A stretch of DNA of 64,000 bases from Minisyncoccota bacterium (GTDB taxonomy: Bacteria > Patescibacteriota > Minisyncoccia > Phycocordibacterales > UBA1006): NCBI GenBank assembly GCA_036405175.1, contig DASWYC010000002.1, forward strand, positions 187,429 to 251,428, read 5' to 3'. The notes beneath the pieces were generated by a model that searched no databases, was not told the DNA's origin, and saw only the letters and a list, made by a program, of their open reading frames with translations. Below, in pieces: positions 3,132-49,211 of this stretch. How positions within the stretch are numbered: the first letter of the stretch is position 1; each line of letters opens with the position of its first letter. Both the position numbers and the translations under genes were made by a program.

Positions 3132-4076
3132 ATGGAAAAAGAAAAAACAGATCAAGAGATTCACCGTGAAATGGTGATCAAATTTCAGGAGGCAATATGG
3201 AATACGGAAGATCTACGAGGTCTCGAACGTAAAGGTTCATATGATGGACATAACGACGTTAAGTCTCGATACTGGACAACTGTACTGTTTAAAACTAATC
3301 CATCCTTGCTATTGCCTAATAACACAAGGTTGGGCTATGGAAGTCTACCAGATTATTCGGTCGTTTTTATTTACGATCATGAGACCGGTAGTTCTACGTA
3401 TGTCAGAGAATGTTTTGATAGTCAGGGTAAAGATTCTTATAAAGATATCTGTACCTTTGCGGAATTCTTTCCTGAAAAGCGTGTTCTTGTTGCTCAATTC
3501 ACAAATAGGCTTATGCTCTATCAATTTAAAGAAGACTCATTTGAGATTTTTGCCAAAATTGATAGTGTTAAGTCTTTTGATAATCTGGATAGATATTTTA
3601 AACAAACTATCCAAAGGGTTATTTTTGAAGAGAACAACCTAAATTATTTAACCTATATTGATAGTGAGGGACATATCTCTTTGCTACGCTTTGATTGGGA
3701 TAAGCTTTCTCTTGAAATAAGCTTGCTGCCTGGATTTAATGTTCGTTTCGGTGGTCTTTATAGCTTAAATATTTACGAGTCTGAATTAGGACTCCTTGCC
3801 GTTATGGGAACATACGGACGACAAAGGTCTGAGCCCGACATGAGTTCTACATTCTTTATTCAATGGGATGTTCAGGATACTCCTCTTTCTCTTCATCACT
3901 ACAAAACTAATGTGTATCAAAGTTGGACACCAGGTAAGGTGACATTCTCTTCTGTAAAGCGAAAAGGTTTTATAAAAGTCAACATATTTCTTTCAGGGAG
4001 AGGGTTACTATCAGCAGACACCGTGCCCGTTAATATGAAATTCCTACAAGAAAAGGAGAAGAAGAAATCAAAGTAA
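3132..4076 (+). CDS. Hypothetical protein (314 aa) with no family I recognise
   Basis: A long clean ORF with an ATG start, followed by a strong hairpin terminator at 4081-4116. Confidence 0.5.
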   Translation: MEKEKTDQEIHREMVIKFQEAIWNTEDLRGLERKGSYDGHNDVKSRYWTTVLFKTNPSLLLPNNTRLGYGSLPDYSVVFIYDHETGSSTYVRECFDSQGKDSYKDICTFAEFFPEKRVLVAQFTNRLMLYQFKEDSFEIFAKIDSVKSFDNLDRYFKQTIQRVIFEENNLNYLTYIDSEGHISLLRFDWDKLSLEISLLPGFNVRFGGLYSLNIYESELGLLAVMGTYGRQRSEPDMSSTFFIQWDVQDTPLSLHHYKTNVYQSWTPGKVTFSSVKRKGFIKVNIFLSGRGLLSADTVPVNMKFLQEKEKKKSK

Positions 4077-4485: not shown

Positions 4486-5127
4486 ATGTTGGATCACCCT
4501 CTGTTTAAAAATAAAAATAATATGAAAATAAGAAGTTTTCAAGATGCTCTTATCTATGTGTGGAGGGAAAATAGAAAATGGGGCATAACATCCGATGATA
4601 ATAGATTTTCTCCTCAAGTTTTCTTAAATAAAATATTTAGACTCTTGTATGAAACAGGTAGTTTTCCTATAAAAACAGAGATGAGAACGATCCCGTCTAA
4701 CTTTGATTTTCTAAATAAGCCTGATAGTGAATTAACCGAGCGTCAAAAGCAGCACAAGGATGATGTTTTAAAACTCATTCTTTACTTTTTATTATTAATA
4801 AATTCAACCGTCCCGTATGAAAATGTTGAACGAGGCGGAACATTCTTTAGAATGAAAAAACTTCCGAATGAGCAAGATATTATTGATATTATTCTACGTA
4901 AAGATGGTAGTAGAAACCATAACGCTCCATCACTGGCTTCATGCTTTGAATACTTTTTGATACGCATGTCAGAGTTAACTGATAATACTCTTAATGCCGG
5001 TGACTTCCATTTGGATCCCTTAAGTGCAACAAAGCATCTTAGTGATCTATACATTTGTATAAGATACTGGCTTAAACACGTCAAAATAGGATTGTTTTTA
5101 TCTGGAATACCAAACATAAAGTTTTAG
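4486..5127 (+). CDS. Hypothetical protein (213 aa) with no family I recognise
   Basis: ORF with an ATG start, separated from the upstream gene by a 400-bp non-coding gap. It converges on topA with a shared hairpin. Confidence 0.45.
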   Translation: MLDHPLFKNKNNMKIRSFQDALIYVWRENRKWGITSDDNRFSPQVFLNKIFRLLYETGSFPIKTEMRTIPSNFDFLNKPDSELTERQKQHKDDVLKLILYFLLLINSTVPYENVERGGTFFRMKKLPNEQDIIDIILRKDGSRNHNAPSLASCFEYFLIRMSELTDNTLNAGDFHLDPLSATKHLSDLYICIRYWLKHVKIGLFLSGIPNIKF

Positions 5128-15055: not shown

Positions 15056-15183
15056 ACCTACGCAGTATAGCTTAAAACCAAGCTGATTTCCAGGATCTTT
15101 TAACAATATCTTTTGATAATTAGTGAGTAAATCTGGGCGAGTAGACTCTTGTGTGATATTATCAAGCTATAATGCCGGGATGG

Positions 15184-15267
15184 TGGAATCGGTAGACACG
15201 AGGGACTTAAAATCCCTTTCTAGCAATAGAGTGCGGGTTCGATTCCCGCTCTCGGCACCCGAAGAAT
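15184..15267 (+). tRNA. tRNA-Leu (anticodon TAA), class II with a long variable arm
   Basis: Cloverleaf read by eye: acceptor GCCGGGA/TCTCGGC, anticodon loop CTTAAAA, T-arm GCGGGTTCGATTCCCGC. No CCA is encoded (ACCC). Confidence 0.85.
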
Positions 15268-15714
15268 AAATAATAAGAACTTTAGTAAAATCCTGTATGA
15301 AAATATGGGATTTTGCATTGACAAGTTGCTCAAGAGTGAAGTGCAATGTTTTTGGTGGCTGGCCTTAGTGTAAAGAAAAGCTTTTAAGAAATTCCAAGAT
15401 AACTCTATTGGACACTATAAAGGACATGTTGGACAAGTACTGAAAAGCATGCTCTCAGCTTTATGTCCATTAGAGTACGTATGTTGTCCTATAGAAGAAT
15501 AGATAGGAAATATAAAGTTTCACGCTTATGATTAACATAAGTTTATGCCAAGAAATAAAGAGTGGTACATGAAACACCTTTTGATATTATAAAACCATCA
15601 AAAAGCTGGGCAAAAAATAACAAAAACATTTGTTAAAATTTGCTTGTTTTTCAGAGCATGACCTCGTATTCTGGGCTAATAAGCGCTAAAAACGCTTGAA
15701 TTTATAAGCCCCTT

Positions 15715-18700
15715 ATGATAGCCTGCCGTTATAATATGAATAGTCACAAAGTTACCTTCGCTGCAGTCTTACCAACTGTTTCTTATAAGGTTTTTCAGCG
15801 TCTTTTGACGTATTTTTTATTACTATTTTTTACCATTAATCCATTCGTCTCCATTGTATCTGCCGCTGAGATTGGTCATAATCCACAAGTCTCAAGCTAT
15901 GATACGGTGGTGGATGGTATTGGGCAGTCGCCGAATACTTCCGTAACTACTCCTTCTGGAGCTTTGCCCTTAAATACGCCAGTGGCACCTCTTTCATCTT
16001 CAGCACAAGTTGAAATTTCCTCAGGAGCATTTGTCGATGCATATGACTTTAATCTTCCTAAGGGACCTGGAGGTATTATCCCGCCCCTTGCACTTTCATA
16101 CGATTCACGTCGCAGAAATTATGATGGGTCTTTTGGTATAGGGTTTACTCTGGATATTCCGACCATTTCTCGTATTAATAAGTTTGGTATTGATCGCATG
16201 TATGAAGATAGCTCTTTTTCTTCCAGCATTCATGGTGAGTTGGTAAAGTTAAGTAAAGAACAAGATGCATACGGAGTGTATGGAGTGAAGAATGGTTATG
16301 GACGCTACATATTTAATCGAGACAATTCATGGAGTTATATCAACAAAGAAGGTGTAACCTATGTATTTGGGGCAAAGAGTACAGAGCGTGAATTTATCTC
16401 AACTGATGATACAAAGATTTCCCAATGGAATCTTTCAACAATTACTGATCCGTATAAGCACACGTATAGATATGTTTACGATAAGGTGTCAGAAAAACTT
16501 TTCCCAATTGCCATCTTGTATCCAAATGATATTTATAAAGTTGATATCGGGTGGAATCGTGCACCTCAAACGACGCTAACTTACGAAAATGGGTATGGAC
16601 AAGGTGTTGGTTCTCGTCGTGCTACTCAGGTTACGTTGAGCGCTTTAGGTGTTATGTATAGGACTCATGCATTTACATTCAATCCATCTACGCTCCGTTT
16701 GGAAAAAATTACAGATTCTGTGTTGGGTGATACAGTATTCACGTATACAGACATTGAAAATCCTCGCAATGCAGTTGTTGTAGAAAAGCCATTGTGGAAT
16801 GTCACTCAGCATCGTGTGGATATTGACGGTGATGGCCAGCAAGATATTTATCGAGTAGAAGCTAATACTACACCCACCAAGCGAACACTTACTATTGGCA
16901 CTACGGTATACCAGAACATGCCGCAGTTTGATGGCTTTGCTGATATAAATAATGACGGTGCTGTAGATGGATATAGTACTGATGGATGTTATCGAACGTA
17001 TCAGGGTAATGGGGTGTTTAGTGCAGCAATTTGTAATCTTGGGCTTATTGTTGGAGATAAGATGATTTTTGAAGATATTAATAATGATGGAATTATCGAA
17101 TATATTACTGCTGCTCAGGGGCACCTCAAAGTATATACGTTCAAGGATGGGAAATATACATTAAATCCATCTATGAAAGCTGTTGGGGGAACTATGTGGG
17201 ACGACCTAACAAATAGCTATATGGCAACTTTTGATGTGAACGGCGATAATCAAAAAGATATTTTGATTGGCGGCGATGCATATCTTAATAGAGGAGTGTT
17301 CTTTGAATTTTCAAATAACTACCAAGTAGATACTTCAAATAGATATTATTTCCCTAATGCCGGAAAGTTGGAATATCAATATATATTAACGCCCGTTGAT
17401 TATAACGGTGATGGTCTGCTTGAAATTAAAATCGATGAAAACTGGAAAGAACAATGTTCAAGTAGCGGTACAGGCTGGTGCGCAAAAGTGAATACTCAGA
17501 AATTCTTGAATAGCGGGCACGGATGGATTGCTGTTAATGTTGATTATTGGAATAACTTTACTTCATTTACTCAAGAAAAGGTTCCTCTTATTACAAAAGT
17601 TGCGGATGCTCGTCTTGAGACAGATGTTGTTTATGGACTCGAAGATATTGCAAAAAGTAATATTTTAGGAAGTATTAAGAAGGTTATTGTTGTGAAATCA
17701 ATCACAAGTCCATATAGTCAAACAAATTATAGTTACACCAATGGAAAGTACTACTTTAACCAGAAAGAACAAACCAGTGAGTTTGCCGGCTTTGAGACGG
17801 TGGTGGCCACTGACGGGTTAGGGCGCAAATCAATTTCGTATTTCCATCAGGGAAATGATACGAATACCGCCAAGGGAGAATTTGAAGATTCGCGCTATAA
17901 AATTGGGCGAACATTCCGCCAAGAATTCTATGGTGCTACCGGAACATTACTCAAAACTATCACCACTAAGTGGATTCAGGCGGATTTAGGATCTGAACGA
18001 TATTTGGTGGTGCCGGAATACACCTCACAGCTGATTGATGGTGTAGGTACGGCGGTTGGCTATACGTATGATACTGCGGTGGGAGAGTTGGTTCGCCAAT
18101 ATAATTTTGGTGACGCAACGGTGAATACTGACGGATCATTCACTGATGTTGGCATCGACCTTGTGATTACTAAATATCATTACAAAACCAATGGAGCGTT
18201 GGTAGTGCGTGATGAAGAGCAGCGTGAACGTAATGGTGAGCAGCTTTTTCATGGGCGCTATACATATAACCCGGCATTAACTCAACTGGTTAAAGAAGAA
18301 GTATCAGAAATGCCCGGATCATTTGCGAGCAGAACTTTCTCATACACAAGTGATGGAAGCTTGAGTAGCTCTACTGATTTTATGGGGAATACTACTACCT
18401 ATACATATGATAGCTATAAATTCCTTCCAAAGACAATCACTAATGCGCTGGGTCATATAACGACGCTTGAGTATAACTATGTAGTTCAAAAACCAATCAA
18501 AGTTGTTACACCTGATGCTATTACGTCAACCTATGTCTATGATCTGCTTGGTAATGAGCTTGAATACTACCGCAATGGAGTAAAAGAAAGAGTTGCTTCT
18601 GTTTCAAATAACTTTAAAGATTACACATATTCTCAAACTCTTAATACGAGTACCAGTATCCCTGCAAGTGACACATATGTTCAAAAAGTAGTTAATCATG

Positions 18701-21700
18701 ATGGGCTTATGCGTCCTGTCTATGAGCGTGATACTGACGGTAACCATATAGCGACTACATACGATCAGTATGGACGCGTGGCAGAGAAAACTATTCCCTA
18801 CACAGGTATGCTTACTGATAGTAAAAAAATAAGATTTACATATGACGATTTAGATCGTGTGATTACTCAGACTACTGTGGATGGCGTAACTCGCTATGCT
18901 TATAACGGACGTACGGTGACGATAACCAGTCCGTCGGACACGATAAAAATGATGGAATATGATAGCGCAGGTAACTTAATTGCGGCGACTGAAGGTGGAT
19001 TTACAACACGGTATACCTATAACGGTAATAATAATCTTGTTAAGCTCGTTGATCAGGAAGGAAATATTAAAGAACAGTCATTTAATCTGCTTGGTCGCAA
19101 ACTCATGACAACTGACCTTCGTAAATCAATAGCCGCTGACTATGGGCGATACTATTTTGTGTATGATCGCAACGGTAATCTTACTCAAGAAATAAAACCA
19201 GGAAATGTAACCGTACTTCATACTTATGATACGCTTGGCCGCTCAAAAACTACCACATCAGGAGAGGATACTATTACGTATACATATGATACCTGTATGC
19301 CAGGCAAACTCTGTTCAGAAACACGCGGAGCGTATTATTCAAAAACTTATACATATACTCCTAAGGGGCAAATAAAAACAGTTACTGAAAAGATTCATGA
19401 TAAAACCAGTATTGTTCAATATGAATATATGGGTGCAGGGGATTTGGTAACAAAAATTACCTACCCTGGCAATATTATCATCACATATGAATATCAAAAG
19501 GATAAATTGGTGCAGATAAAGAAAAATGGAACGTCGCTATTAAGCTCTGTTCAGTACGACTTTGGACGTCTTAAACAACTTCAGTTTGCAAACGGTCTTA
19601 AAACGGTAAATGCGTATAATGAAAATAATTTATATCGCCTTTCGCAGCGTGTGACTACAAATAGTGGAAATACAAAGTTACAAGATATTGGCTATACGTA
19701 TAACTCTTTAGGAATGATTGCTAGCCTTGTTGATTCATCAGATACTCCAACTAAAAAATCAGTTACCTACGTATATGATGATGTGCAGCGTCTCCTAACT
19801 GTTACATATACTATTAGCTCTGATACTACTACAGAAAACTTCACTTACTCTCCATCAGGTAACTTACTTAGTTCGCCTCGTGGAACAATGACGTATGGAG
19901 AAACTGTATCGCCTCAACAGATGAATATGGAGGTGATTGTACCCGAAGAAGAGCAAGCTCAGTCATCTCAGCAGGCCTCAGAGAATCCACCGATTATTCA
20001 TCCAGAAAACCCAGAGTCACCTATCATGCCAACGGTGCCTTCAGGAAATAGTAATGGTCGTAATGATGAAGTTTCATATCGCCATTCCAAATGGAACCCA
20101 GGTGGCTTGCTTAAGGCAACAATCGCATATGCAGAAGAAGTTAAAGTAGGTGAAGAGTCGGGCAGAAATGATCAAGAAATAGCATTAGATTTGGATCAAG
20201 AGCCCGAGTCATCGTTACAAAACCAAACTCTACAGGAAAAAGCCTTGTCTACCTGTGGTGAAGATGGAGTGTTAATCGCTGATTGTGTTATTTCACAACA
20301 ACAAGCTGATCCTATTGAATGTCTGCCGCCAGGTATTTTGGCATCTGGGCGATGCCTCATGCCCGAATCATGGACAAATTCAGAAACTTCTTGTCCTCCT
20401 GCATCTGAAAGATGCTCCGCTATAGTGAATGTTAACTGTTTGGAAAATGAAGTGCCCACCGATGGTGGATGTGCAAGAAAAGTGACGGCAATGCTTGCTT
20501 CTGACAGTGTCGACAGTGATCCGCTCACTCTTGATCAATTGGTTGATCGTCTGCGTGGCAAACTTATTACCATTTATCAAACAGGTAGTGGTATGCTCAT
20601 GACTCTTATTAATGGTGAATCAGGTGAAACAGGGGTGCGTATCCGTAATGATATTGCAGGCAAAGTTGTAATGCCACGCGATGCACAAACTATTGCCGTC
20701 AGCTTTGAAAAGGCGCTTTCCGTAGTACCAACTATTACTATTACACCTCAGGGTCCGATTACTGGAACACCATATATTACCAGCGTAAGCACTACTGGAT
20801 TCACAATTAATGTGACGTCGCCAGTGTTGCAAGATGTGATATTCCATTACTATGCATTTGGTATCCCAGAGTCAGAGTTACAAACTGTGGGAACCATTCC
20901 TCAGCCAACAACTCCAACCGAGCCGTCGGAAACTGAATGTCCTCTTGGATTTGAAAAAGATGCACAACAAAATTGTATTCCCGAGGTGGACACAAGTGAT
21001 CCTGTAGAAGTAGTACATCCACATGCCGTAACCTCCCAAGAAAAAGATGGGAGTGTTACAAGCTACACCTATGATGCGCGAGGTAATCTCTTGAATGATG
21101 GAACTTATACGTATGTGTGGAGTAATCTTAATGAATTGATGTCATCTCAAGATACTAATACAACAGTTCGTTATAACTACTCACCATCACATGATAAGAT
21201 TTATGAGGAAGAAGTGAGTGGTGACACAGGCTCACCGATGATTAATAAAACATACTTCTTTAGCTCTTTAATTAATCGTAATGGAATGATTGAGATTGCA
21301 TTGCCATACGGTATTGTGTTAAAAAATGGCACACCAATATATACGTTTACTGATCATCTTGGTACGGTACAGGTAATTGCTAATCAAGCCGGAGTCGCAA
21401 CTGATGTATTTGATACGTATGCTTATGGTGATGAGCGAGTGAAAACCGGTACGACAGATGCCAAGTACGCACTTCATGAGTACGACAATAATCTTATTTA
21501 TATGAAAGCGCGCTATTATGATCCAGCAACCGGTTCATTTATCTCACAGGACCCAACCGTCTTGCTTGCACCAGAACAATATATTGGGGATCCATTACAG
21601 CTTAATGCGTATGGATATGCGCGCGGGAATCCAGTGATGCATAATGATCCAGATGGAAATCAAGCTGTAGCTGCTATGGTAATTGCACCCGCTCTTGAAT

Positions 21701-22278
21701 CTTCTGCTATGCTTGCTCTTTTAGGAAGCTCTGCAACATGGTTGAGTAGGAGCCGCGATACGATGCTTCTGCCGCTTATGGGTATGCATTATTTGATGAG
21801 TAGGGCGACCGAGAATAACCAGCCGCTTCCTATTCCGCAAGGTTTATCGCTTCCATATGTGCCAAATCCTGAAGATCCAGATGATTTTCTAAAATCTGTA
21901 GATGAATCTAGACGAAATGGGCATGTGAGAAGTAAGCACGTCAAAAATAGTAGAAGTAATCTACTGCAGGAGCTTGAGAGTAATCCAAATTCTGATGGAG
22001 CAACAAGCTTTCGCTCAAGTAAGACTGCTGAGCAAGCTATTAAGAATGGTCTAAATAATAATCAAAGTCATATCAATAACTTTTTGAATAACGAAAGGGT
22101 GGGTGAAAGAACATTTATTGATTATAATACAGGCAATAGTATTGGGTATGGATACACAAAGTTGGCTACAGGAGAAATAATTAAAGTAAATTCAATTAAA
22201 GTAGTTAGAATTGTGATAGAAAAAATGTCGAGAGCGAATTATAAGATAATTACAAGTTTTCCAAAAGCTGGAATATAG
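15715..22278 (+). CDS. Giant secreted polymorphic toxin, Tc-toxin TcB/TcC-like. From N to C it has a SpvB-type domain, an FG-GAP-like beta-propeller, YD/RHS repeats with a Cys-rich insertion, an RHS repeat-associated core ending in DPDGN, and a variable C-terminal toxin domain
   Basis: 2187 aa. There is an N-terminal signal/TM segment (FLLLFFTINPFVSIVSAAEIG). The SpvB signature is SSGAFVDAYDFNLPKGPGGIIPPLALSYDSRRRNYDGSFGIGFTLDIPTISRI. FG-GAP-like repeats include DIDGDGQQDIY, DINNDGAVDGY, DINNDGIIEYI, DVNGDNQKDILIGG and DYNGDGLLEI. Many YD repeats are present (YTYD.., YVYDRNGNL.., YTYDARGNLL). The RHS core reads TDHLGTVQVIAN...ARYYDPATGSFISQDP...NAYGYARGNPVMHNDPDGN, followed by a 205-aa unique tail. 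Confidence 0.9.
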   Translation: MIACRYNMNSHKVTFAAVLPTVSYKVFQRLLTYFLLLFFTINPFVSIVSAAEIGHNPQVSSYDTVVDGIGQSPNTSVTTPSGALPLNTPVAPLSSSAQVEISSGAFVDAYDFNLPKGPGGIIPPLALSYDSRRRNYDGSFGIGFTLDIPTISRINKFGIDRMYEDSSFSSSIHGELVKLSKEQDAYGVYGVKNGYGRYIFNRDNSWSYINKEGVTYVFGAKSTEREFISTDDTKISQWNLSTITDPYKHTYRYVYDKVSEKLFPIAILYPNDIYKVDIGWNRAPQTTLTYENGYGQGVGSRRATQVTLSALGVMYRTHAFTFNPSTLRLEKITDSVLGDTVFTYTDIENPRNAVVVEKPLWNVTQHRVDIDGDGQQDIYRVEANTTPTKRTLTIGTTVYQNMPQFDGFADINNDGAVDGYSTDGCYRTYQGNGVFSAAICNLGLIVGDKMIFEDINNDGIIEYITAAQGHLKVYTFKDGKYTLNPSMKAVGGTMWDDLTNSYMATFDVNGDNQKDILIGGDAYLNRGVFFEFSNNYQVDTSNRYYFPNAGKLEYQYILTPVDYNGDGLLEIKIDENWKEQCSSSGTGWCAKVNTQKFLNSGHGWIAVNVDYWNNFTSFTQEKVPLITKVADARLETDVVYGLEDIAKSNILGSIKKVIVVKSITSPYSQTNYSYTNGKYYFNQKEQTSEFAGFETVVATDGLGRKSISYFHQGNDTNTAKGEFEDSRYKIGRTFRQEFYGATGTLLKTITTKWIQADLGSERYLVVPEYTSQLIDGVGTAVGYTYDTAVGELVRQYNFGDATVNTDGSFTDVGIDLVITKYHYKTNGALVVRDEEQRERNGEQLFHGRYTYNPALTQLVKEEVSEMPGSFASRTFSYTSDGSLSSSTDFMGNTTTYTYDSYKFLPKTITNALGHITTLEYNYVVQKPIKVVTPDAITSTYVYDLLGNELEYYRNGVKERVASVSNNFKDYTYSQTLNTSTSIPASDTYVQKVVNHDGLMRPVYERDTDGNHIATTYDQYGRVAEKTIPYTGMLTDSKKIRFTYDDLDRVITQTTVDGVTRYAYNGRTVTITSPSDTIKMMEYDSAGNLIAATEGGFTTRYTYNGNNNLVKLVDQEGNIKEQSFNLLGRKLMTTDLRKSIAADYGRYYFVYDRNGNLTQEIKPGNVTVLHTYDTLGRSKTTTSGEDTITYTYDTCMPGKLCSETRGAYYSKTYTYTPKGQIKTVTEKIHDKTSIVQYEYMGAGDLVTKITYPGNIIITYEYQKDKLVQIKKNGTSLLSSVQYDFGRLKQLQFANGLKTVNAYNENNLYRLSQRVTTNSGNTKLQDIGYTYNSLGMIASLVDSSDTPTKKSVTYVYDDVQRLLTVTYTISSDTTTENFTYSPSGNLLSSPRGTMTYGETVSPQQMNMEVIVPEEEQAQSSQQASENPPIIHPENPESPIMPTVPSGNSNGRNDEVSYRHSKWNPGGLLKATIAYAEEVKVGEESGRNDQEIALDLDQEPESSLQNQTLQEKALSTCGEDGVLIADCVISQQQADPIECLPPGILASGRCLMPESWTNSETSCPPASERCSAIVNVNCLENEVPTDGGCARKVTAMLASDSVDSDPLTLDQLVDRLRGKLITIYQTGSGMLMTLINGESGETGVRIRNDIAGKVVMPRDAQTIAVSFEKALSVVPTITITPQGPITGTPYITSVSTTGFTINVTSPVLQDVIFHYYAFGIPESELQTVGTIPQPTTPTEPSETECPLGFEKDAQQNCIPEVDTSDPVEVVHPHAVTSQEKDGSVTSYTYDARGNLLNDGTYTYVWSNLNELMSSQDTNTTVRYNYSPSHDKIYEEEVSGDTGSPMINKTYFFSSLINRNGMIEIALPYGIVLKNGTPIYTFTDHLGTVQVIANQAGVATDVFDTYAYGDERVKTGTTDAKYALHEYDNNLIYMKARYYDPATGSFISQDPTVLLAPEQYIGDPLQLNAYGYARGNPVMHNDPDGNQAVAAMVIAPALESSAMLALLGSSATWLSRSRDTMLLPLMGMHYLMSRATENNQPLPIPQGLSLPYVPNPEDPDDFLKSVDESRRNGHVRSKHVKNSRSNLLQELESNPNSDGATSFRSSKTAEQAIKNGLNNNQSHINNFLNNERVGERTFIDYNTGNSIGYGYTKLATGEIIKVNSIKVVRIVIEKMSRANYKIITSFPKAGI

Positions 22279-22302: not shown

Positions 22303-22662
22303 ATGAATAACTTTCAAGACAAAGGAGTTAATACATTATGGGATACTCTCACGGGTGCGTACTTAGATCAGCATTATCCCTATGAATTTGGAACATATGA
22401 GAATGCAATACGTGAGTTTATAAAGTTTTATATTTTAGAAATTGATGAATTTATTAAAAACACCGAAGCAATGATTCAAAATGAAGCAGACTTAAAGTTT
22501 TTTATGTCCAATTCAGACTTTAAAATACATCGTAGTGAGGAATTTAAAAAGATGAATCCGCACTATGAAGAGTATCAGATGAAAAGATTCCTTAAAATCT
22601 TTGAAGATTTGAAATCTCAGTATCAAAAGATGAAGGAAGAAGGTTCAATTTCTAAGGCATAA
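22303..22662 (+). CDS. Putative cognate immunity protein for the upstream RHS C-terminal toxin
   Basis: A 119-aa acidic ORF starting 24 nt after the toxin stop. It has an ATG start and a strong terminator right after it. The position is typical of Rhs/CDI immunity genes. I recognise no family. Confidence 0.5.
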   Translation: MNNFQDKGVNTLWDTLTGAYLDQHYPYEFGTYENAIREFIKFYILEIDEFIKNTEAMIQNEADLKFFMSNSDFKIHRSEEFKKMNPHYEEYQMKRFLKIFEDLKSQYQKMKEEGSISKA

Positions 22663-22666
22663 ACTC

Positions 22667-22699
22667 AAATCAAAAACCACTTTTCGTGGTTTTTGATTT
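22667..22699 (+). terminator. Intrinsic terminator
   Basis: aaatcaaaaaccac-ttttc-gtggtttttgattt. Confidence 0.75.
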
Positions 22700-22713
22700 A
22701 CTAGCCAAATTTG

Positions 22714-23322
22714 ATGAAAGGTGTACACTACAAGAGTATGAAGAAATACACCAATATCATCATTCTTTTAAGTATTATCATAATTGGACTTGTAGTTTAT
22801 ATTATCGCTAATAACCGTAAGAGCGTTGACGTTGACACCATGACCACATCGGAGGAAATGGTAACAACGCCCGTTGGTGAACAATCCACCACTACTACGT
22901 CTTCAACACCGGTAAAAAAGACTACAACCTCAACACCTAAGAAGACAACCACCGCAACAACGTCTCCAACACCATCAATTAACAAGACATTGTTGGAGAA
23001 TAATCCCTACGTACCATACGGATTCTATATCCAAACACCAACCGGGTATCGTTTGCGACCTTCAACTGATTCTGTAACCGGAAACGTAACGGTTGGATAT
23101 CCAGATGGAGTAATTATGTATGTTAAAGATGCCGCTAAGTATGAGCAATCAACCGTTGTTCCAAAGTATAAATATCTAGGAACAACTAAGGTTGGAGGAA
23201 ATACCTTTAAGACCTATACCTACGGAACCATGACCTACTACTGGATCACTGATGGCAATGAAGGATACGAAATCATTACCACCAAAAAAGATTCATTAAG
23301 TACGTTTGAGATTTTAGAATAA
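22714..23322 (+). CDS. Membrane-anchored protein with a Thr/Ser/Pro-rich (mucin-like) linker and a beta-rich C-terminal domain
   Basis: The N-terminal TM is IIILLSIIIIGLVVYII, then TTPVGEQSTTTTSSTPVKKTTTSTPKKTTTATTSPTPS, then a roughly 110-aa Tyr/Gly/Thr-rich domain. The track start at 22711 is TTG, and an ATG lies at 22714. Confidence 0.5.
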   Translation: MKGVHYKSMKKYTNIIILLSIIIIGLVVYIIANNRKSVDVDTMTTSEEMVTTPVGEQSTTTTSSTPVKKTTTSTPKKTTTATTSPTPSINKTLLENNPYVPYGFYIQTPTGYRLRPSTDSVTGNVTVGYPDGVIMYVKDAAKYEQSTVVPKYKYLGTTKVGGNTFKTYTYGTMTYYWITDGNEGYEIITTKKDSLSTFEILE

Positions 23323-23340
23323 AAACATGCTTATTCACGT

Positions 23341-23376
23341 AAAACCCACCAGAGATGGTGGGTTTTGACTTTTTTA
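23341..23376 (+). terminator. Intrinsic terminator
   Basis: aaaacccacc-agagat-ggtgggtttt followed by gactttttt. Confidence 0.7.
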
Positions 23377-23429: not shown

Positions 23430-24029
23430 ATGCAGCTGATTAATATATTTCATAATCAAGTCTTTGCTCAGGCTATGATTGTATTGATATTTCTCCTTAT
23501 AGTAGCCGTATGGTCTTACTTTGGAAATATTGATAAAACAAGCCCTGGGTACATCGCTAAACAAATTAAAAAACAGGATAAGCGGAATATTCGATATATA
23601 AAAGATATCCTAAAAGGTCACTACATAAAACTAACCAAGGAGCAAATAGCTCAATTTATCGAAAAGTATTCCGTATGGGTCCAACAAGAAAAACAGCTTG
23701 TATCAACAACTTCTAAAGAGCGATTATTCAGACAAGGACAATATCGCAATGAATTTAAAGTTAGTTTTATGTTTCTTGATGAATTATTGCCCGAAGAAGA
23801 GTCTCCGTTCAAGCTTGCCTTTAAAGATGCATTTACTGAACCATTTCCTTCAACTCATGATATGGACGATTGGGCATTTGTAAATAAAGTAACAGATATT
23901 CTTGCTTTGAAAGGATATAACCCTCGGGAAGAACGCCTTGTTGCTTTGGTACACAAAAAAGAACATTTTGTGAATCATGATATTACAACGGGAATCATTA
24001 TTTTTGATATCTACCTTCTTGAAGAATAA
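23430..24029 (+). CDS. Hypothetical membrane-anchored protein (199 aa)
   Basis: N-terminal TM (FAQAMIVLIFLLIVAVWSYF). I recognise no family. Confidence 0.45.
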   Translation: MQLINIFHNQVFAQAMIVLIFLLIVAVWSYFGNIDKTSPGYIAKQIKKQDKRNIRYIKDILKGHYIKLTKEQIAQFIEKYSVWVQQEKQLVSTTSKERLFRQGQYRNEFKVSFMFLDELLPEEESPFKLAFKDAFTEPFPSTHDMDDWAFVNKVTDILALKGYNPREERLVALVHKKEHFVNHDITTGIIIFDIYLLEE

Positions 24030-24055: not shown

Positions 24056-24082
24056 AAAAAGCCGCATTTCCTGCGGCATTTT
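24056..24082. terminator. Bidirectional terminator before the rbfA 3' end
   Basis: aaaaagccgca-tttcc-tgcggcattttttatt. Confidence 0.6.
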
Positions 24083-27289: not shown

Positions 27290-28252
27290 ATGAAAAATTT
27301 AATTTTCCTAATTGCTTTCTTTGTAAGCACTACAACTTTTGCCCAATATTATTCTGAGACAGCCCCAGACTTTATTACAGTCAAAGGGTCCGCAAGATTT
27401 GGAGATGGCTGGGGTAACTCAAGCTCATTTGGTAAGAAGAGTTTCGCCGCAGGCCTCAACAATACCGTAACTGGTGAAAATTCAATTGCGTGCGGTGTTG
27501 GATTAAATATTCGAACACCTAATCAGGTTGTTCTGGGTACGTATAACATTGCTTACGGCAGTAGCACAAGTGGTACAACTGGCACAGACCCGTTAGTAAT
27601 AATAGGGAATGGCGTTGCCTCATGGGCACCAAGTAATGCCATGGTTATATTGCGGAATGGCAATATCGGTATTGGACCACATACTTGGCCACCAACAGCG
27701 CAATTACACATAGCTTACGACGAGTATAAGAATCCAGATGAAGCTGCCTTCAGAGCTGATGGAAGTACATACAGTACTACTATACATGATGATATGTATG
27801 AAGACGTCAACATCAATGGTGGTAACGATTACTCATTTGTGAACCTCGCCCGACCTGCTGGTCAAAGGGTTGGCATTGGTGCTAATCCCGATAACGGACC
27901 TGAAAAACTTTATGTTAAAGGTCATATGAAGGTCACCGGTTATGTTGGGTCAACCGAAGGGTTTTATATCTATAATACTGAACCCACAACAGGCTCTTTG
28001 GTACCAAATCAAAAAAGTTTCCTACAGAGACTAAATGAGATGGCGGTTGTATCTTATAAGAAAGATTCAGTAGTTGTTAAGCAATATCTCAGTATTAATC
28101 CAGCTGAAACATCAATTGTTAGCAGTGTTGGCAAAACTGAAAAGGCGAAGGACTATATACAAGTAGTAAACACTCTTGTTGGCGCGGTTAAGGAACTTGC
28201 CGAAGGGAACAAGCTACTTAAAGCAGAAATTGAAAAATTAAAAAAGAAGTAA
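27290..28252 (+). CDS. Secreted fibre-like protein with a YadA-head-like/tail-fibre-like repeat region and a C-terminal domain like the endosialidase chaperone (peptidase S74) with a coiled coil
   Basis: The signal peptide is MKNLIFLIAFFVSTTTFAQ. Degenerate S.A.G..N.A.G..S repeats (KKSFAAGLNNTVTGENSIACGVGLN) are present. NAMVILRNGNIGIGP...AQLHIA resembles tail-fibre collar segments. The C-terminus (LNEMAVVSYKKD...LVGAVKELAEGNKLLKAEIEKLKKK) resembles the S74 intramolecular chaperone domain. Confidence 0.5.
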   Translation: MKNLIFLIAFFVSTTTFAQYYSETAPDFITVKGSARFGDGWGNSSSFGKKSFAAGLNNTVTGENSIACGVGLNIRTPNQVVLGTYNIAYGSSTSGTTGTDPLVIIGNGVASWAPSNAMVILRNGNIGIGPHTWPPTAQLHIAYDEYKNPDEAAFRADGSTYSTTIHDDMYEDVNINGGNDYSFVNLARPAGQRVGIGANPDNGPEKLYVKGHMKVTGYVGSTEGFYIYNTEPTTGSLVPNQKSFLQRLNEMAVVSYKKDSVVVKQYLSINPAETSIVSSVGKTEKAKDYIQVVNTLVGAVKELAEGNKLLKAEIEKLKKK

Positions 28253-28394: not shown

Positions 28395-30035
28395 ATGAAA
28401 AAACAACTATTGTTCGCATTACTGTGCACTCTCTCTGTAAGTGCTTTTGCTCAATTTGAAGCATGTCCAGGTCTCATTTGGACAAAGGGTGCCGTTAAAA
28501 TTGGTGCAGAACCTAATTACTATCCTTTGCCAAAAGAGGGAGAATTGCTGCAAGTTCGTGGTAGTGGATACGTAACAGACGACCTCACCGCAACGAGAAT
28601 CTATTCTCAAATGAGTGATAGAGGTGTTCCTGTTAGTAGCCCCTATCCTTCGTTAAATAAAGTATTGAGAATAGGTGTTTTATCAAGTATTGAATTTGGT
28701 AAACTCGTAACTCGACTTAATGGGGCAGATTTAGAAAGAGAATTTCCTAATGGTGTTACTGAAAGGAAGACAGTTGGGAAGTTTTTTAACTACGATGAGA
28801 TGAACGCAGCAGTGATTAACTCAATCCAAGCACTTTATGAAAAGGTTGTTAATCTGGAAGCAGAGAACACAGCTCTTAAATCAAGGGTTGCTAAACTTGA
28901 AAAACAAAATGACCCTTGTCTTAAAGTTACTGCGCGTATTAGTGAGAGTGCTGATAATCCTACATCAAAGACTCTTATTGCCAATAGGTCCACTGCTTCC
29001 TCTGCAATGCTTATTCATGCATTTACTATTAAACCCAAGGATGGAGATGCTGTATTAAAAAACATTCCTGTAAAAATTACCCTTGCCGAAGTGATGGGTG
29101 GAACTCAAACCATCAATTCTTCAGAAGGCTTCGGAGCGTTATTTAATGCAATGGTTGAGTCTGTCTGGGTCGAAGTAAATGGTCACTTTGCTACTGAAGC
29201 TATTGCCTCGATCTCGCACACTTCGACCACAGGTCAAGTTTCAGATGTGGAAGTTAATAGTATTAACTTTGATATCAATGGTAATATAACCATTCCAAAC
29301 GGATCAACCGCTGTGGTTAAAGTTTATGTAAGACTGGCACCAATGCCTGATAATGGAGGCGCTATGAATGCTAACTCAGGAGTAACGATCTCTTCGTCGG
29401 TAAATGGAGACTCAATAGTTCTTGGAACCCCTAATTGCGATGCTATCCCGCCATTCTCAATAACAGGATCATCGACGGGTTATACCCATACTATTCGCAC
29501 CGCGGGTGTTATCTCCGTTATGGGTACTGCCTCCATAGAACCCACTAAGTATATCGAGACAGGCAAAACAAAGTATGTGGTATATACGATTCCGATAACA
29601 CTTACGGCTGTCAGTAAGACTTTCTATGTGGGACAATCGGCTGAATGGGCTACTCGTTCAGGTTCAGGTACTGCTGCTGTTGCATTTGCACTTCAATCAG
29701 CATCTGCGCCCAGTACGGATATAACCAGTCTGGATGAATGCGCTATTACAAATGGGTCAGGTTCTTCAGGGGCAGTTGGGTATATATTTTCGTCACCGCA
29801 GGCCCCTGTGCAAAATCTCGGATATCGTATCGATGAAGGCGTATCGAGAACTTTCATACTCCAGGTGGTGGTAAGTCCGGGTTCAGGTCCTGAAATTCAG
29901 AATGAAGCTCTTCGTGTAGCGCTTAAATCTATTAAATATTACACGAACGATTCGCTTTCGGCTGGTGAGACAATAGATATTGTTCGCATTGTTGAAAATA
30001 ATAGGACTGACTTTGAGCTATATATTGTCAACTAA
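28395..30035 (+). CDS. Secreted protein with an N-terminal segment like the endosialidase chaperone, a coiled coil, and a roughly 350-aa beta-rich C-terminal domain
   Basis: The signal peptide is MKKQLLFALLCTLSVSAFAQ. SDRGVPV...LEREFPNGV...GKFFNYDEMNAAVINSIQALYEKVVNLEAENTALKSRVAKLEKQ parallels the S74 chaperone consensus (GFIAQEV..VFPELV...VNY..L.P.L.EAIKEL...LKA.LEKL). A long Ser/Thr/Gly/Val-rich domain follows. Confidence 0.5.
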   Translation: MKKQLLFALLCTLSVSAFAQFEACPGLIWTKGAVKIGAEPNYYPLPKEGELLQVRGSGYVTDDLTATRIYSQMSDRGVPVSSPYPSLNKVLRIGVLSSIEFGKLVTRLNGADLEREFPNGVTERKTVGKFFNYDEMNAAVINSIQALYEKVVNLEAENTALKSRVAKLEKQNDPCLKVTARISESADNPTSKTLIANRSTASSAMLIHAFTIKPKDGDAVLKNIPVKITLAEVMGGTQTINSSEGFGALFNAMVESVWVEVNGHFATEAIASISHTSTTGQVSDVEVNSINFDINGNITIPNGSTAVVKVYVRLAPMPDNGGAMNANSGVTISSSVNGDSIVLGTPNCDAIPPFSITGSSTGYTHTIRTAGVISVMGTASIEPTKYIETGKTKYVVYTIPITLTAVSKTFYVGQSAEWATRSGSGTAAVAFALQSASAPSTDITSLDECAITNGSGSSGAVGYIFSSPQAPVQNLGYRIDEGVSRTFILQVVVSPGSGPEIQNEALRVALKSIKYYTNDSLSAGETIDIVRIVENNRTDFELYIVN

Positions 30036-34257: not shown

Positions 34258-34899
34258 ATGAAAGAATCAATGGAGTTCTATGACTCAAGCACAGAGAGCG
34301 AAGAAAGTATTGAGAATAAAGAGGAGATAAAACCTGAAATAGATTGGAAATCTCCTTCAGCTGATGATCAAATAAAATTCTTTGAAGCACTTAATTCTGC
34401 TGAGAATAATACTGGAGATGTTCATGAGGTGCCAGACTTATTCATTGATGGAAAGTTTAATAAAGAATTATTCGCAGGATTATTGCTTTTTAGAGCTCCA
34501 AAATATGTGTTAGTGGGGAGTGAGAATGCTGAAAAAGTAATTGGCTTTTTTACTCAATTAAATAAAAAGCTTAATAGTCCATTATTGGGATCAACCATTG
34601 AATACTTTAATGAACAAGTACCCTATTTGAATGCAGCTAATAATATTCAAGAAAATGCCTTTGCAAAATTCGAAACGATTAAGAATAAGGCAGGTGAGAT
34701 TGAATGGTTTGAGGGAGATGTGGAGGCTAAGGGTGATGTGTTGGTAGAAGCTAGTAAGGCACAGTCACTGCAAGTAAAAGTTGAAGTATTTTTTACTAAT
34801 CTTGTGAATAGAACTTACGATGCTCTCTGGGATGAGTATTTGGTTAAAAAAGAAGATGATAATAAAAGTCTTAATAGTGAAAGTAAGCTTCTCAATTAA
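34258..34899 (+). CDS. Hypothetical acidic protein (213 aa)
   Basis: ORF with an ATG start. I recognise no family. Confidence 0.45.
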   Translation: MKESMEFYDSSTESEESIENKEEIKPEIDWKSPSADDQIKFFEALNSAENNTGDVHEVPDLFIDGKFNKELFAGLLLFRAPKYVLVGSENAEKVIGFFTQLNKKLNSPLLGSTIEYFNEQVPYLNAANNIQENAFAKFETIKNKAGEIEWFEGDVEAKGDVLVEASKAQSLQVKVEVFFTNLVNRTYDALWDEYLVKKEDDNKSLNSESKLLN

Positions 34900-47927: not shown

Positions 47928-49211
47928 ATGCAGCGCGTGGCTTTTATAATGTTTTCTCTTGCAATAATTGGTGTAACGCCACTTATTACTCATGCATCCG
48001 CAAAAGAAGAATCGTTAAAAGTTCAAAAAACTATTACTACGCTTGAGCAGCAAAAACAAGATTTGCTGGATCAGCAACTGCAGCGCAAAGAAGAGCACAT
48101 GAATATTAAAAATAAACTTAAATATAATGAGCTCAATAAAGAAGAGACACTCTTGCTAATTGCAGAAGAAATGAATGAATTAGAATCAAGTGGCAGCACC
48201 ATCTCAACGCTTACCAAAGGAATCATCTCGCAAGAGCGACTGGTAAAAAATCTCGTACGCCGTATTTATATGCTGCAAAGCCAGAATCGTTTCTTGACGT
48301 ATCTTTCTCAAAAGAAACTTTTGGATGATTCAAAAACTTCATATGTTGGGGTGCTTAATAATCTCCACTCAAATATTACGCAATACAAAAATCTTTTAGC
48401 TGCGCTCTCTCAAATTCAGGATAGTCATGAATTGTCTCAACTCAACCTTGATCGTCTTGAAGAAATTTATCAATTTAGAATGACGGAGCTTCAGCAAGTC
48501 ATTGAAGCTGATACACGAGAAATGCAAAGCCGCAGCGAGCAGCTCAAGCAACTTGATCAAACCATCAACAAGCAGAAAGAACACTATGCGGAACTCCAAA
48601 TAGAGATCGAAGCCGATTTGATTATGGCTGAGAATCGTAATGTGTCATACAAAGCACCGGAACCAGGTGAATTGTTCTCGTGGCCCCTCAAAGAAATATT
48701 AGTAACACAGATGTTTGGACAAACCAAAGATGCTAAGCGTTTGTATGTATCGGGCAGTCATAGTGGGGTAGATTTTAGAGCAAACTATGACACCATTCTT
48801 TCAATTGGAAAAGGAGTAGTTGCGGCTGTGGGTGATACCGACTTGGCATGCAGTAGATCATCATTTGGAAAATGGATTTTGATTGAATATCCGGAAGGAG
48901 TGTCAGTAACCTATGCACACTTGTCTAAAGTATTTGTGTCACCTGGTGATGTAGTTGGTGTAGGTGATGCAATTGCAGTATCAGGAAATACCGGACGCAC
49001 TACGGGGCCGCACCTTCACCTGGGAATGTATACCACGTATGATAATCTGGGTAAAAAAGTGGTACATGTTGAAGGAAAGGAGAGTACAGTTTGCAAGGGA
49101 AAGATTTTAGTACAGCCACGTGCGCCACGTAGTGCGTATTTGGATCCTCTTGAGTATCTACCCAAACTCCAAAAAGGTATGGCAAAGGTAGGATCAACTC
49201 ATAATCATTGA
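47928..49211 (+). CDS. M23-family peptidoglycan endopeptidase with an N-terminal signal peptide and a long coiled coil (EnvC/LytM-like)
   Basis: A signal peptide, about 230 aa of coiled coil, then the M23 domain: GVDFRA..., the HxxxD region and GRTTGPHLHLGMY (HxH). The agtatact -10 lies 10 nt upstream. Confidence 0.8.
   Translation: MQRVAFIMFSLAIIGVTPLITHASAKEESLKVQKTITTLEQQKQDLLDQQLQRKEEHMNIKNKLKYNELNKEETLLLIAEEMNELESSGSTISTLTKGIISQERLVKNLVRRIYMLQSQNRFLTYLSQKKLLDDSKTSYVGVLNNLHSNITQYKNLLAALSQIQDSHELSQLNLDRLEEIYQFRMTELQQVIEADTREMQSRSEQLKQLDQTINKQKEHYAELQIEIEADLIMAENRNVSYKAPEPGELFSWPLKEILVTQMFGQTKDAKRLYVSGSHSGVDFRANYDTILSIGKGVVAAVGDTDLACSRSSFGKWILIEYPEGVSVTYAHLSKVFVSPGDVVGVGDAIAVSGNTGRTTGPHLHLGMYTTYDNLGKKVVHVEGKESTVCKGKILVQPRAPRSAYLDPLEYLPKLQKGMAKVGSTHNH

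Follow-up and report, generated by a model that had tools for sequence, protein, structure and literature searches.

The stretch of DNA described here (hereafter, the window) comprises 64,000 nucleotides of contig DASWYC010000002.1 from Candidatus Paceibacterota, a lineage of the Candidate Phyla Radiation (CPR), and holds a gene for a large toxin with a small gene directly downstream. The larger gene encodes an RHS polymorphic toxin whose front end is TcB-like and whose warhead is of the RNase A type, and the smaller encodes its probable immunity partner. The toxin open reading frame (ORF; 15715..22278) is the largest in the 64-kb window, the runner-up encoding 900 aa, and the other genes serve core functions (tRNA synthetases, RpoA, FtsW, MurG, ParB, RelA, and ABC transporters), as an original prediction made from the sequence letters had stated. 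The RNase A-like warhead, a 370-residue lectin-containing insertion, and membership in a CPR-wide protein family had gone unnoticed there. Feature coordinates are collected in Table 1.

Integrity and domain order of the toxin gene

The NCBI record of the toxin, located on a contig of 667,975 bp and entitled 'MAG TPA: RNase A-like domain-containing protein [Candidatus Paceibacterota bacterium]' (MAG, metagenome-assembled genome; TPA, third-party annotation), has 2180 aa because its start was placed at M8 (15736), seven codons downstream of ours. A chimeric or misassembled ORF was ruled out by an independent Logan assembly (L003; SRR11449184, 13,013 bp), which is 100% identical to the window from position 14847 and includes the full 2187-aa ORF; since the two agree at every base, the chimeric-contig objection fails, and the intactness of the ORF, on which the original prediction depended, is confirmed. 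Four sister runs also contain portions of this sequence. Upstream, the tRNA-Leu ends at 15260, so the non-coding gap before the gene measures 454 bp (15261-15714) rather than the 445 bp initially given. This gap has no Rfam match (Rfam returned only three tRNAs), a promoter scan yielded no plus-strand sigma-70-like candidate within it, and neither of the two candidate starts (15715 and 15736) has a clear Shine-Dalgarno sequence ahead of it.

The N-terminus is a predicted Sec-type signal or anchor: Kyte-Doolittle hydrophobicity over a 19-residue window (KD19) reaches a maximum of 2.05 around aa 35-46, and the hydrophobic stretch (approximately aa 30-50) is preceded by K25 and R29 and followed by VSA-AE. 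The Pfam SpvB family (PF03534) matches aa 116-184 (E 1.2e-11 to 1.8e-10, 41-45 bits against a cutoff of 22), covering profile positions 17-83 of 287 only, and FG-GAP_3 (PF13517) matches aa 454-518 above its cutoff (E 1.2e-10). Five DxDxDG-type motifs (aa 369, 410, 454, 507, and 562) are all kept in the ortholog of the toxin (P0002, described below). No match to the TcdB mid-N or mid-C families (PF12256, PF12255) was found, even at E <=5 on sub-regions, whereas PF12256 is present in several relatives.

In the RHS shell, RHS_repeat (PF05593) scores 53.5 bits against a cutoff of 22 and YD_repeat_2x (TIGR01643) 59.3 bits against 15.8; in sequence comparisons with the PDB, the first part of the shell also matches the Rhs effectors Tse15, 7q97, and Tse5, and it shows colinear homology to CPR relatives. 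The Rhs_assc_core model (TIGR03696) matches aa 1902-1981 (52.3 bits against 32.5), ending at G1981 (nt 21657). The core of the toxin reads ARYYDPATGSFISQDP...NAYGYARGNPVMHNDPDGN, and the consensus ARY..G.F.SQDP...LNSYSYARNNP....DP.G is common to 53 CPR relatives; the second part of the shell, together with the core, is 79% identical to the ortholog. All domain types named in the original prediction (SpvB, FG-GAP, RHS repeat, and RHS core) therefore score above their Pfam or NCBIfam cutoffs, its end point for the core was exact, and its signal or membrane anchor and "about five" calcium-type repeats are recovered as a hydrophobic stretch and five conserved motifs. The long shell that it placed at aa 780-1900 is indeed an RHS shell, though not a continuous one, as aa 1397-1766 form a non-RHS insertion.

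The front end was modeled with AlphaFold2 (AF2) over aa 95-800 (706 residues) from a 14-sequence alignment, giving a mean predicted local distance difference test score (pLDDT) of 66.5, with values of approximately 80-90 in the SpvB part and 50-70 in the propeller. In a Foldseek comparison with the PDB, the 11 best matches were TcB or BC entries (among them 5kis, 4igl, 6h6f, 6h6e, 6l7i, 9c4k, 6sue, and 4o9x; E 3.5e-20 to 5.8e-17, TMq 0.43-0.48), followed at lower ranks by Rhs proteins of the type VI secretion system (T6SS; ~1e-10), by teneurins, including one bacterial teneurin-like protein (~1e-7), and by the SpvB N-domain 6p0x (TMt 0.52). Because TcB/BC entries rank first, the front end appears TcB-like, as the structural test suggested for the original prediction had anticipated; given the quality of the model, it supports the architecture and not the details.

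Beyond the core, by analogy with TcC and Rhs proteins, cleavage after ...DPDGN would free aa 1983-2187, a fragment of 205 residues. Its first segment (aa 1983-2068) matches no Pfam family and begins with a hydrophobic stretch (KD19 maximum 1.89 at ~aa 1994). Such a post-core stretch occurs in all three RNase A-like members of the family (KD19 1.77-1.97) and is absent from the three LysM-type (<=0.08) and the two lipase-type members (<=0.38), a distribution that, in this small sample, fits a putative membrane-crossing role for cytoplasm-acting warheads. The remainder is matched by RNAse_A_bac (PF18431) at aa 2069-2183 over the entire profile (positions 1-113 of 113; E 7.4e-20, 72.3 bits against a cutoff of 27) and by the CdiA-CT RNase of Yersinia kristensenii (PDB 5e3e_B, E 2.7e-8). 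With residue numbering derived from the mutagenic primers in PMC5435912, His175 and Thr276 of CdiA-CT(Ykris) correspond to H2075 and T2180, both invariant in the ortholog, Tyr278 corresponds to F2182, and Arg186 corresponds to E2086, which is Arg in the ortholog. Equivalents of His175 and Thr276 are reported to be fully conserved across the RNase family, and Phe to be frequent at the Tyr278 position of homologs (PMC5435912). Between the orthologs, the RNase domain and pre-toxin stretch are approximately 50% identical, compared with 74-79% for the shell. A scan of metagenome contigs with the toxin-domain alignment found nothing.

Table 1. Features of the toxin and its surroundings (nucleotide positions in the window; residues of the 2187-aa protein).
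Feature	Residues (aa)	Position (nt)	Strand	Basis or remark
Toxin ORF	2187 in total	15715..22278	+	ATG start, uninterrupted
Predicted signal peptide or membrane anchor	1-51	15715..15867	+	hydrophobicity
SpvB/TcB-type N-terminal domain	95-365	15997..16809	+	Pfam SpvB PF03534
FG-GAP β-propeller region	366-625	16810..17589	+	FG-GAP_3 and five DxDxDG-type motifs
RHS/YD-repeat shell, part A	626-1396	17590..19902	+	PF05593, TIGR01643
Insertion part 1: acidic/Pro/Gln/Ser-rich linker	1397-1512	19903..20250	+	E16 S13 P11 Q11 of 116 residues
Insertion part 2: Cys-rich segment	1513-1595	20251..20499	+	four close Cys pairs
Insertion part 3: helix and H-type-lectin / tail-fibre-tip-like β-sandwich	1596-1725	20500..20889	+	modeled core aa 1629-1723 = nt 20599-20883
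Insertion part 4: Pro/Thr linker, fifth Cys pair	1726-1766	20890..21012	+	C1742/C1754 kept in P0002
RHS shell, part B, and RHS-associated core	1767-1982	21013..21660	+	...ARYYDPATGSFISQDP...NPVMHNDPDGN, predicted autoproteolysis motif
Pre-toxin segment: hydrophobic stretch (1983-2030) and Pro-rich linker (2031-2068)	1983-2068	21661..21918	+	KD19
RNase A-superfamily toxin domain, CdiA-CT(Ykris) type	2069-2187 and stop codon	21919..22278	+	PF18431
Immunity candidate	119 in total	22303..22662	+	starts 24 nt after toxin stop codon
tRNA-Leu		15173-15260		upstream of toxin gene

A lectin-like domain within the RHS shell

Alignments with the ortholog and with more distant relatives reveal that the 370 residues at aa 1397-1766 interrupt the shell. 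At the corresponding position, the relatives read Y.YD.(I/L)GN.T.K.D.G.Y.Y, followed by 5-10 residues and PHAVT, while the window protein reads FTYSPSGNLLSSPRGTMTYGE, the 370 residues, and VVHPHAVTS, which contains the conserved shell motif HPHAVTS. The parts of the insertion differ in conservation: the leading linker shares only 21% of its residues with the ortholog, whereas the shell shares 74-79%, and the helix with its β-domain is 76% conserved. The Cys-rich segment contains the pairs 1514/1524, 1536/1547, 1560/1567, and 1575/1586. All 16 cysteines of the mature protein fall into eight neighboring pairs, and the ortholog keeps every pair but one, 1560/1567, both cysteines of which are deleted there; this pairing fits disulfide bonding and therefore an extracellular location.

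The β-domain is matched by Pfam H_lectin (PF09458) below threshold (16.7 bits against a cutoff of 24, E 0.0084). An exhaustive HMMER search of 1.84 billion representatives returned 57 distant relatives of the β-domain (E 1e-7 to 1e-3), and among the 35 that were scanned for domains, 13 carry Peptidase_S74 (the tail-fibre chaperone) and six carry H_lectin (E <=1e-3). The profile of the 47-sequence β-domain alignment matched no solved structure by sequence; an AF2 model built from the same alignment has a pLDDT of 85 overall and above 93 in the core. The modeled domain adopts the H-type lectin β-sandwich fold, and structural comparison places the insert near lectins and the receptor-binding tips of phage fibres. 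In the wider β-domain family (relatives of aa 1641-1722, P0063-P0119), the consensus is AG.A.IPAG...V.V.F...Y...P.VT.TP....Y.V....TGFTI......D..F.W.A, and the domain often lies at the C-terminal end of large proteins.

The insertion is lineage-specific, since a hidden Markov model of the β-domain matches only the window protein and its ortholog among 80 CPR relatives. It would point outward from the shell, because 370 folded, disulfide-bonded residues would not fit a lumen that already holds a 205-residue toxin and because the fold is one of surface recognition. To our knowledge, such an insertion, rich in disulfides and carrying a lectin-type domain, is new for a conserved shell loop; in our incomplete coverage of the literature, no lectin domain inserted in an RHS shell has been described.

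Lectin-like inserts and propellers are typical adhesion modules and, together with the teneurins and the bacterial teneurin-like protein among the structural matches (E about 1e-7) and the Glu at the Arg186 position, could suggest a teneurin-like adhesin, that is, an attachment device for episymbiosis in which the shell is a scaffold and the RNase is vestigial. We consider this highly improbable: the catalytic His and Thr are kept in both orthologs, the PF18431 profile is matched in full (E 7e-20), the autoprotease motif of the RHS core is intact, and a dead toxin would not need a conserved, tightly linked immunity-type gene.

The immunity candidate, the ortholog locus, and the CPR-wide family

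The sole homolog of the downstream 119-aa protein among 5.8 billion proteins is encoded at the same position of the ortholog locus (77% identity); the differences between the two cluster in the first 30 residues. CdiI_2 (PF18593), which we take to be the family built on the Y. kristensenii CdiI protein, matches the 119-aa protein at E 5.6e-4 and 21.1 bits, below the cutoff of 26.7 (profile positions 6-55 of 91); the downstream protein of the ortholog gives no CdiI_2 match, and no NCBIfam model matches the 119-aa protein. The other two RNase A-like members are a Saccharibacteria MAG (L062), in which the downstream ORF also encodes 119 aa and scores above the CdiI_2 cutoff (34.7 bits), and L078, in which the downstream ORF is unrelated (168 aa). 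An A/T-rich hairpin follows the 119-aa gene at ~22672-22694 and was not flagged by the terminator scan. Position and conservation indicate that this is probably the cognate immunity gene, and membership of its product in the CdiI_2 family is not established; the immunity gene originally predicted thus corresponds to a conserved small gene, with a family match that stays below cutoff.

The sole ortholog, P0002, shares 68-70% identity with the toxin, has the same architecture, and occupies the same slot between thrS and rbfA/infB. At its locus (L001, a 66.7-kb contig), the flanking gene order is that of the window: topoisomerase I, an FAD protein, MurJ, NYN, and ThrRS lie on the left, followed by the module (toxin, immunity gene, and two variable genes) and, on the right, by RbfA, IF-2, an aminotransferase, and ClpB. 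This shared order indicates that the module was inherited within the lineage and not recently acquired. The GC content over the toxin gene (0.39-0.43) resembles that of the rest of the window, while the following 2 kb, at 0.338, form the window minimum; recent horizontal acquisition of the toxin gene was rejected on the basis of this similarity and of synteny in a relative with a ~68%-identical protein.

Beyond the ortholog, the closest database matches are SpvB/FG-GAP/RHS proteins at 24-30% identity, one of them labeled 'Patescibacteria group bacterium'. A scan of genome contigs seeded with the full window protein returned no relative. The 14-sequence N-terminal alignment (A6) was too divergent for search patterns, and a closer alignment without the query (A8) was used; the resulting scan, seeded with the N-terminal domain of these database matches, gave 143 confirmed members, of which the best 80 were examined. 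All 80 match the window protein, the best being colinear over aa 55-1400 at 26-27% identity (E 1e-106), and most have ORFs of 1,950-2,900 aa. CPR labels are attached to 66 of them and span Saccharibacteria, Paceibacterota/Parcubacteria, Doudna-, Ryan-, Kaiser-, Magasanik-, Uhr-, Falkow-, Nomura-, Staskawicz-, Vogel-, Zambryski-, Komeili-, and Adlerbacteria, Peregrini-/Peribacteria, and Minisyncoccia. Across 53 CPR relatives, the C-termini (last 250 residues) are polymorphic and include nucleases, peptidoglycan hydrolases, and lipase-like domains. Those seen more than once are RNase A-like (three, the window included), LysM (three), and α/β-hydrolase or PGAP1-like (two); Ntox50, Tox-REase-7, Peptidase_M15_4/VanY, Ntox44, a barnase-type ribonuclease, Ntox21, and SLT were also found. 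Judged by these comparisons, the window protein belongs, as a divergent representative, to a polymorphic toxin family spread across the CPR, and no TcB-like RHS family across the CPR has been described in the literature that we covered, which was incomplete. The rarity implied by the original prediction, which had stressed the reduced genome, did not hold: relatives are common in CPR genomes and, because the family is so widespread and NCBI had already annotated the protein automatically, the toxin is less surprising than presented.

The genomic surroundings of these relatives bear on a second explanation, in which the protein is the BC subunit of a three-part Tc toxin whose TcA-like translocator, specified at another genomic site, attaches to the propeller and delivers the RNase into a host cell, be it eukaryotic or bacterial. 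In Tc toxins, the SpvB and FG-GAP domains contact TcA, and both domains are present here in a 706-residue front end that matches TcB/BC cocoons best; moreover, the 64 kb inspected belong to a contig of at least 668 kb. We nevertheless judge this explanation to be unlikely. No TcA, T6SS, type VII secretion system, or CdiB gene lies within the window, in agreement with the original prediction as regards TcA, T6SS, and CdiB, and none of the 80 related loci has a TcA-sized neighbor, a T6SS, or CdiB. Long ORFs upstream of related CPR loci were considered as TcA-like candidates and turned out to be RpoC, helicases, histidine kinases, a lipase, and unannotated secreted proteins of ~1,200 aa. The lack of a TcdB mid-N or mid-C match also speaks against a Tc holotoxin, as does the probable immunity gene, such a gene being atypical of eukaryote-directed Tc toxins, while the predicted export signal and paired cysteines suggest stand-alone extracellular action. 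Finally, a published census places TcC almost only in Proteobacteria (96.4%) and Firmicutes (3.2%), setting aside 'orphan' TcCs as possibly delivered otherwise (PMC7861908). Because the TcdB middle domains were not found in the protein, nor a TcA partner in the window or beside the 80 relatives, the protein should not be filed as a Tc toxin subunit; in the label 'TcB-TcC-like', the resemblance stands and membership in the Tc toxins does not.

The secreted ~1,200-aa proteins, which have no Pfam match, lie on the same strand upstream of the RHS gene in Doudnabacteria (L045:2280-5891), a Patescibacteria MAG (L049:774-4310), and Falkowbacteria (L052:2266-5946). The L049 protein is 27-28% identical to its L045 and L052 counterparts over about 800-1000 residues, and the latter two match each other weakly (25% over 161 residues, E about 3e-5). 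They could be partner proteins or mere surface proteins, and the window has no counterpart. Among the relatives without CPR labels, a 2335-aa SpvB/RHS family member (L015, NZ_FZMP01000168.1) lies on a contig labeled Candidatus Methanoperedens nitroreducens, an archaeon, and several others are labeled Gammaproteobacteria in automated TPA assemblies; these labels could reflect binning or label errors or real transfers.

Two further genes follow the immunity candidate in the window. A 203-aa ORF (22711-23322, plus strand; 202 aa in other gene calls) has an N-terminal transmembrane (TM) helix, a Thr-rich linker, and a β-rich C-terminal domain, and matches no Pfam family. Gene content between the immunity candidate and rbfA varies, since L001 carries an unrelated 291-aa TraB/GumN-like gene there. 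The second ORF (23430-24029, plus strand; 199 aa) likewise has an N-terminal TM helix and no family, shares 24% identity with a 196-aa gene at the equivalent position of L001, and is bracketed by strong terminator-like hairpins at 23340-23367 and 24061-24077 (both strands). Pfam (E <=1e-5) assigns no family to five ORFs of 213-546 aa among the core genes (27290-28252, 28395-30035, 3132-4076, 4486-5127, and 34258-34899), and the L001 equivalents of the first two are likewise unannotated. A 427-aa Peptidase_M23 protein (47928-49211, plus strand), possibly a peptidoglycan endopeptidase, adjoins cell-wall synthesis genes and may be a housekeeping protein or a further factor acting on host cell walls.

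Proposed mode of action and comparison with known systems

Taken together, these results make it likely, in our view, that the locus is a two-gene toxin-immunity module of Candidatus Paceibacterota encoding a Sec-exported, TcA-independent RHS RNase toxin with its own receptor-binding module. Under this proposal, the toxin would be exported by Sec and fold outside the producer cell. The RHS core would cut at about N1982/Q1983, after which the 205-residue fragment would stay inside the shell. As in Tc BC cocoons, the other end of the shell would be closed by the propeller and SpvB part, and the lectin-like insert would project outward and bind a surface glycan of the target cell, thereby supplying the targeting that TcA, CdiA, or VgrG give elsewhere. 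The hydrophobic pre-toxin stretch might then aid passage of the RNase across the target membrane, after which the enzyme would degrade cellular RNA; in the producer and its kin, the 119-aa protein would block the RNase.

As for delivery and target, both of which we infer, the latter is most likely another bacterium, either the host of the presumed episymbiont or competing cells, because a nuclease combined with an immunity gene is a signature of interbacterial polymorphic toxins. A candidate host- or competitor-targeting weapon had been proposed originally; the main points of that interpretation find support, and the probable immunity gene argues for a target of bacterial type, in contrast to the eukaryotic ones of classical Tc toxins.

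Several observations weigh against this proposal. The search for a TcA partner in the organism's own genome spanned 64 kb out of at least 668 kb, autoproteolysis is presumed because the motif is present, and the residue after DPDG is Asn here, compared with Leu in many Rhs and TcC proteins. The outward placement of the insertion is argued solely from its disulfide pattern, fold, and size, and the model of aa 95-800 is of moderate quality only (mean pLDDT 66.5, propeller 50-70). In the RNase domain, the Arg186 equivalent is Glu (E2086), though it is Arg in the ortholog. The immunity assignment is a probable one, resting on position and conservation: the CdiI_2 match falls below the Pfam cutoff, neither the candidate nor its two-sequence profile matches a PDB entry, and an hhalign comparison with the L062 CdiI_2 protein was non-significant.

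A third explanation overlaps largely with the one preferred here and differs from it only in the ligand of the insert and in the target: the protein could be a WapA-like, surface-retained toxin of contact-dependent inhibition that serves kin discrimination among Paceibacterota, its lectin-like insert anchoring it to the wall or S-layer of the producer. The combination of a Sec-type signal, RHS shell, nuclease, and probable immunity gene is like that described for Bacillus WapA (PMC5435912), the shell has changed less between the orthologs than either the toxin or the N-terminal portion of the immunity candidate, and the C-termini of the family are polymorphic. On the other hand, Pfam scans revealed no recognizable cell-wall-binding or anchoring domain, the toxin family has been retained rather than swapped between the two orthologs, and no orphan toxin or immunity cassettes were found downstream of the module, nor orphan RHS or toxin fragments elsewhere in the window. 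The structural neighbors of the insert, being phage-fibre receptor-binding tips and lectins, argue for binding to other cells, though they are compatible with self-binding too. On balance, kin discrimination by a surface-retained protein seems to us a rather unlikely function.

The means by which CPR/Patescibacteria episymbionts harm, exploit, or compete with other cells are largely unknown, and almost none of these organisms can be cultured. The present locus offers a concrete module, an RNase A-type toxin with a probable 119-aa antidote, that is testable in E. coli. The wider family adds TcB-like RHS toxins with varied warheads across many CPR classes, outside the taxa of the published Tc census (PMC7861908). 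In addition, the lectin-like insert suggests that RHS cocoons can gain a targeting domain of their own within the shell, a possibility relevant both to target finding by toxins that lack TcA, CdiA, or a T6SS and to the engineering of cocoon delivery, and offers a testable answer to the delivery question. A broader idea, which we put forward only tentatively and hold to be doubtful, is that TcB-fronted RHS cocoons are a general TcA-independent contact weapon of CPR/Patescibacteria episymbionts, directed at their bacterial hosts and retargeted here by a disulfide-rich tether and a phage-fibre-like lectin domain in a shell loop. If true, one polypeptide would bind the receptor, enclose the toxin, release it, and, by means of the hydrophobic pre-toxin stretch, bring it into the membrane, and the insertion would represent a previously undescribed route for retargeting an RHS cocoon.

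Compared to the Tc BC cocoons (e.g., Photorhabdus TcdB2-TccC3 and Yersinia entomophaga YenB-YenC2), the toxin shares the SpvB-type N-domain, FG-GAP propeller, RHS shell, core motif, and variable, presumably encapsulated C-terminal toxin. It differs in being a single polypeptide with a predicted export signal and an RNase warhead, in being accompanied by a probable immunity gene, in having no TcdB mid-N/mid-C matches and no TcA nearby, and in its 370-residue lectin-containing shell-loop insertion; its shell and propeller also comprise ~1,500 residues, compared with ~2,150 for the TcB plus TcC shell. The T6SS Rhs effectors (RhsA, Tse15, Tse5, and Tre23-Rhs) share the RHS shell and core and provide shell sequence matches and second-tier structural matches, but carry PAAR or VgrG-binding N-termini, depend on the T6SS, and have no Sec signal, SpvB domain, or propeller. 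With Y. kristensenii CdiA-CT/CdiI (PDB 5E3E), the toxin has in common the family PF18431 and the His175 and Thr276 equivalents, and Phe stands at the Tyr278 position, as in many homologs; in contrast, CdiA-CT is delivered by CdiB/CdiA in Gram-negatives, and the window pair has Glu at the Arg186 equivalent and a sub-threshold CdiI_2 match in its probable immunity protein. The β-domain is 11-22% identical in sequence to H-type lectins (Helix pomatia agglutinin, discoidin I, and SLL-2) and to the receptor-binding tips of phage tail fibres, tailspikes, and R-pyocin fibres, but sits in an RHS shell loop instead of at a fibre tip, and its sugar binding is putative.

In its logic, the toxin is closest to the Sec-dependent RHS/YD toxins of Gram-positives (Bacillus subtilis WapA/WapI type). 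Like them, it would be exported independently of a T6SS or two-partner secretion and joins an RHS shell to a C-terminal nuclease, next to a gene that in our case is a probable immunity gene. In place of an SpvB domain and propeller, WapA carries wall-binding repeats at its N-terminus, and we know of no insertion inside its shell. An RNase A-like domain had already been listed in Rhs proteins, including one from Streptomyces, for which Sec export was suggested by analogy with WapA (PMC5435912). Within the CPR, an RHS/YD toxin with an immunity gene has been noted in passing for a rhizosphere Saccharibacteria genome; this 2487-aa protein of 'T. rhizospherense' is, like the window protein with its probable immunity gene, a large secreted RHS polymorphic toxin with an immunity gene as neighbor (PMC6031116). 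Among the CPR-wide SpvB/FG-GAP/RHS proteins, the window protein is divergent (26-30% identity), and the lectin-like insertion sets it and its ortholog apart.

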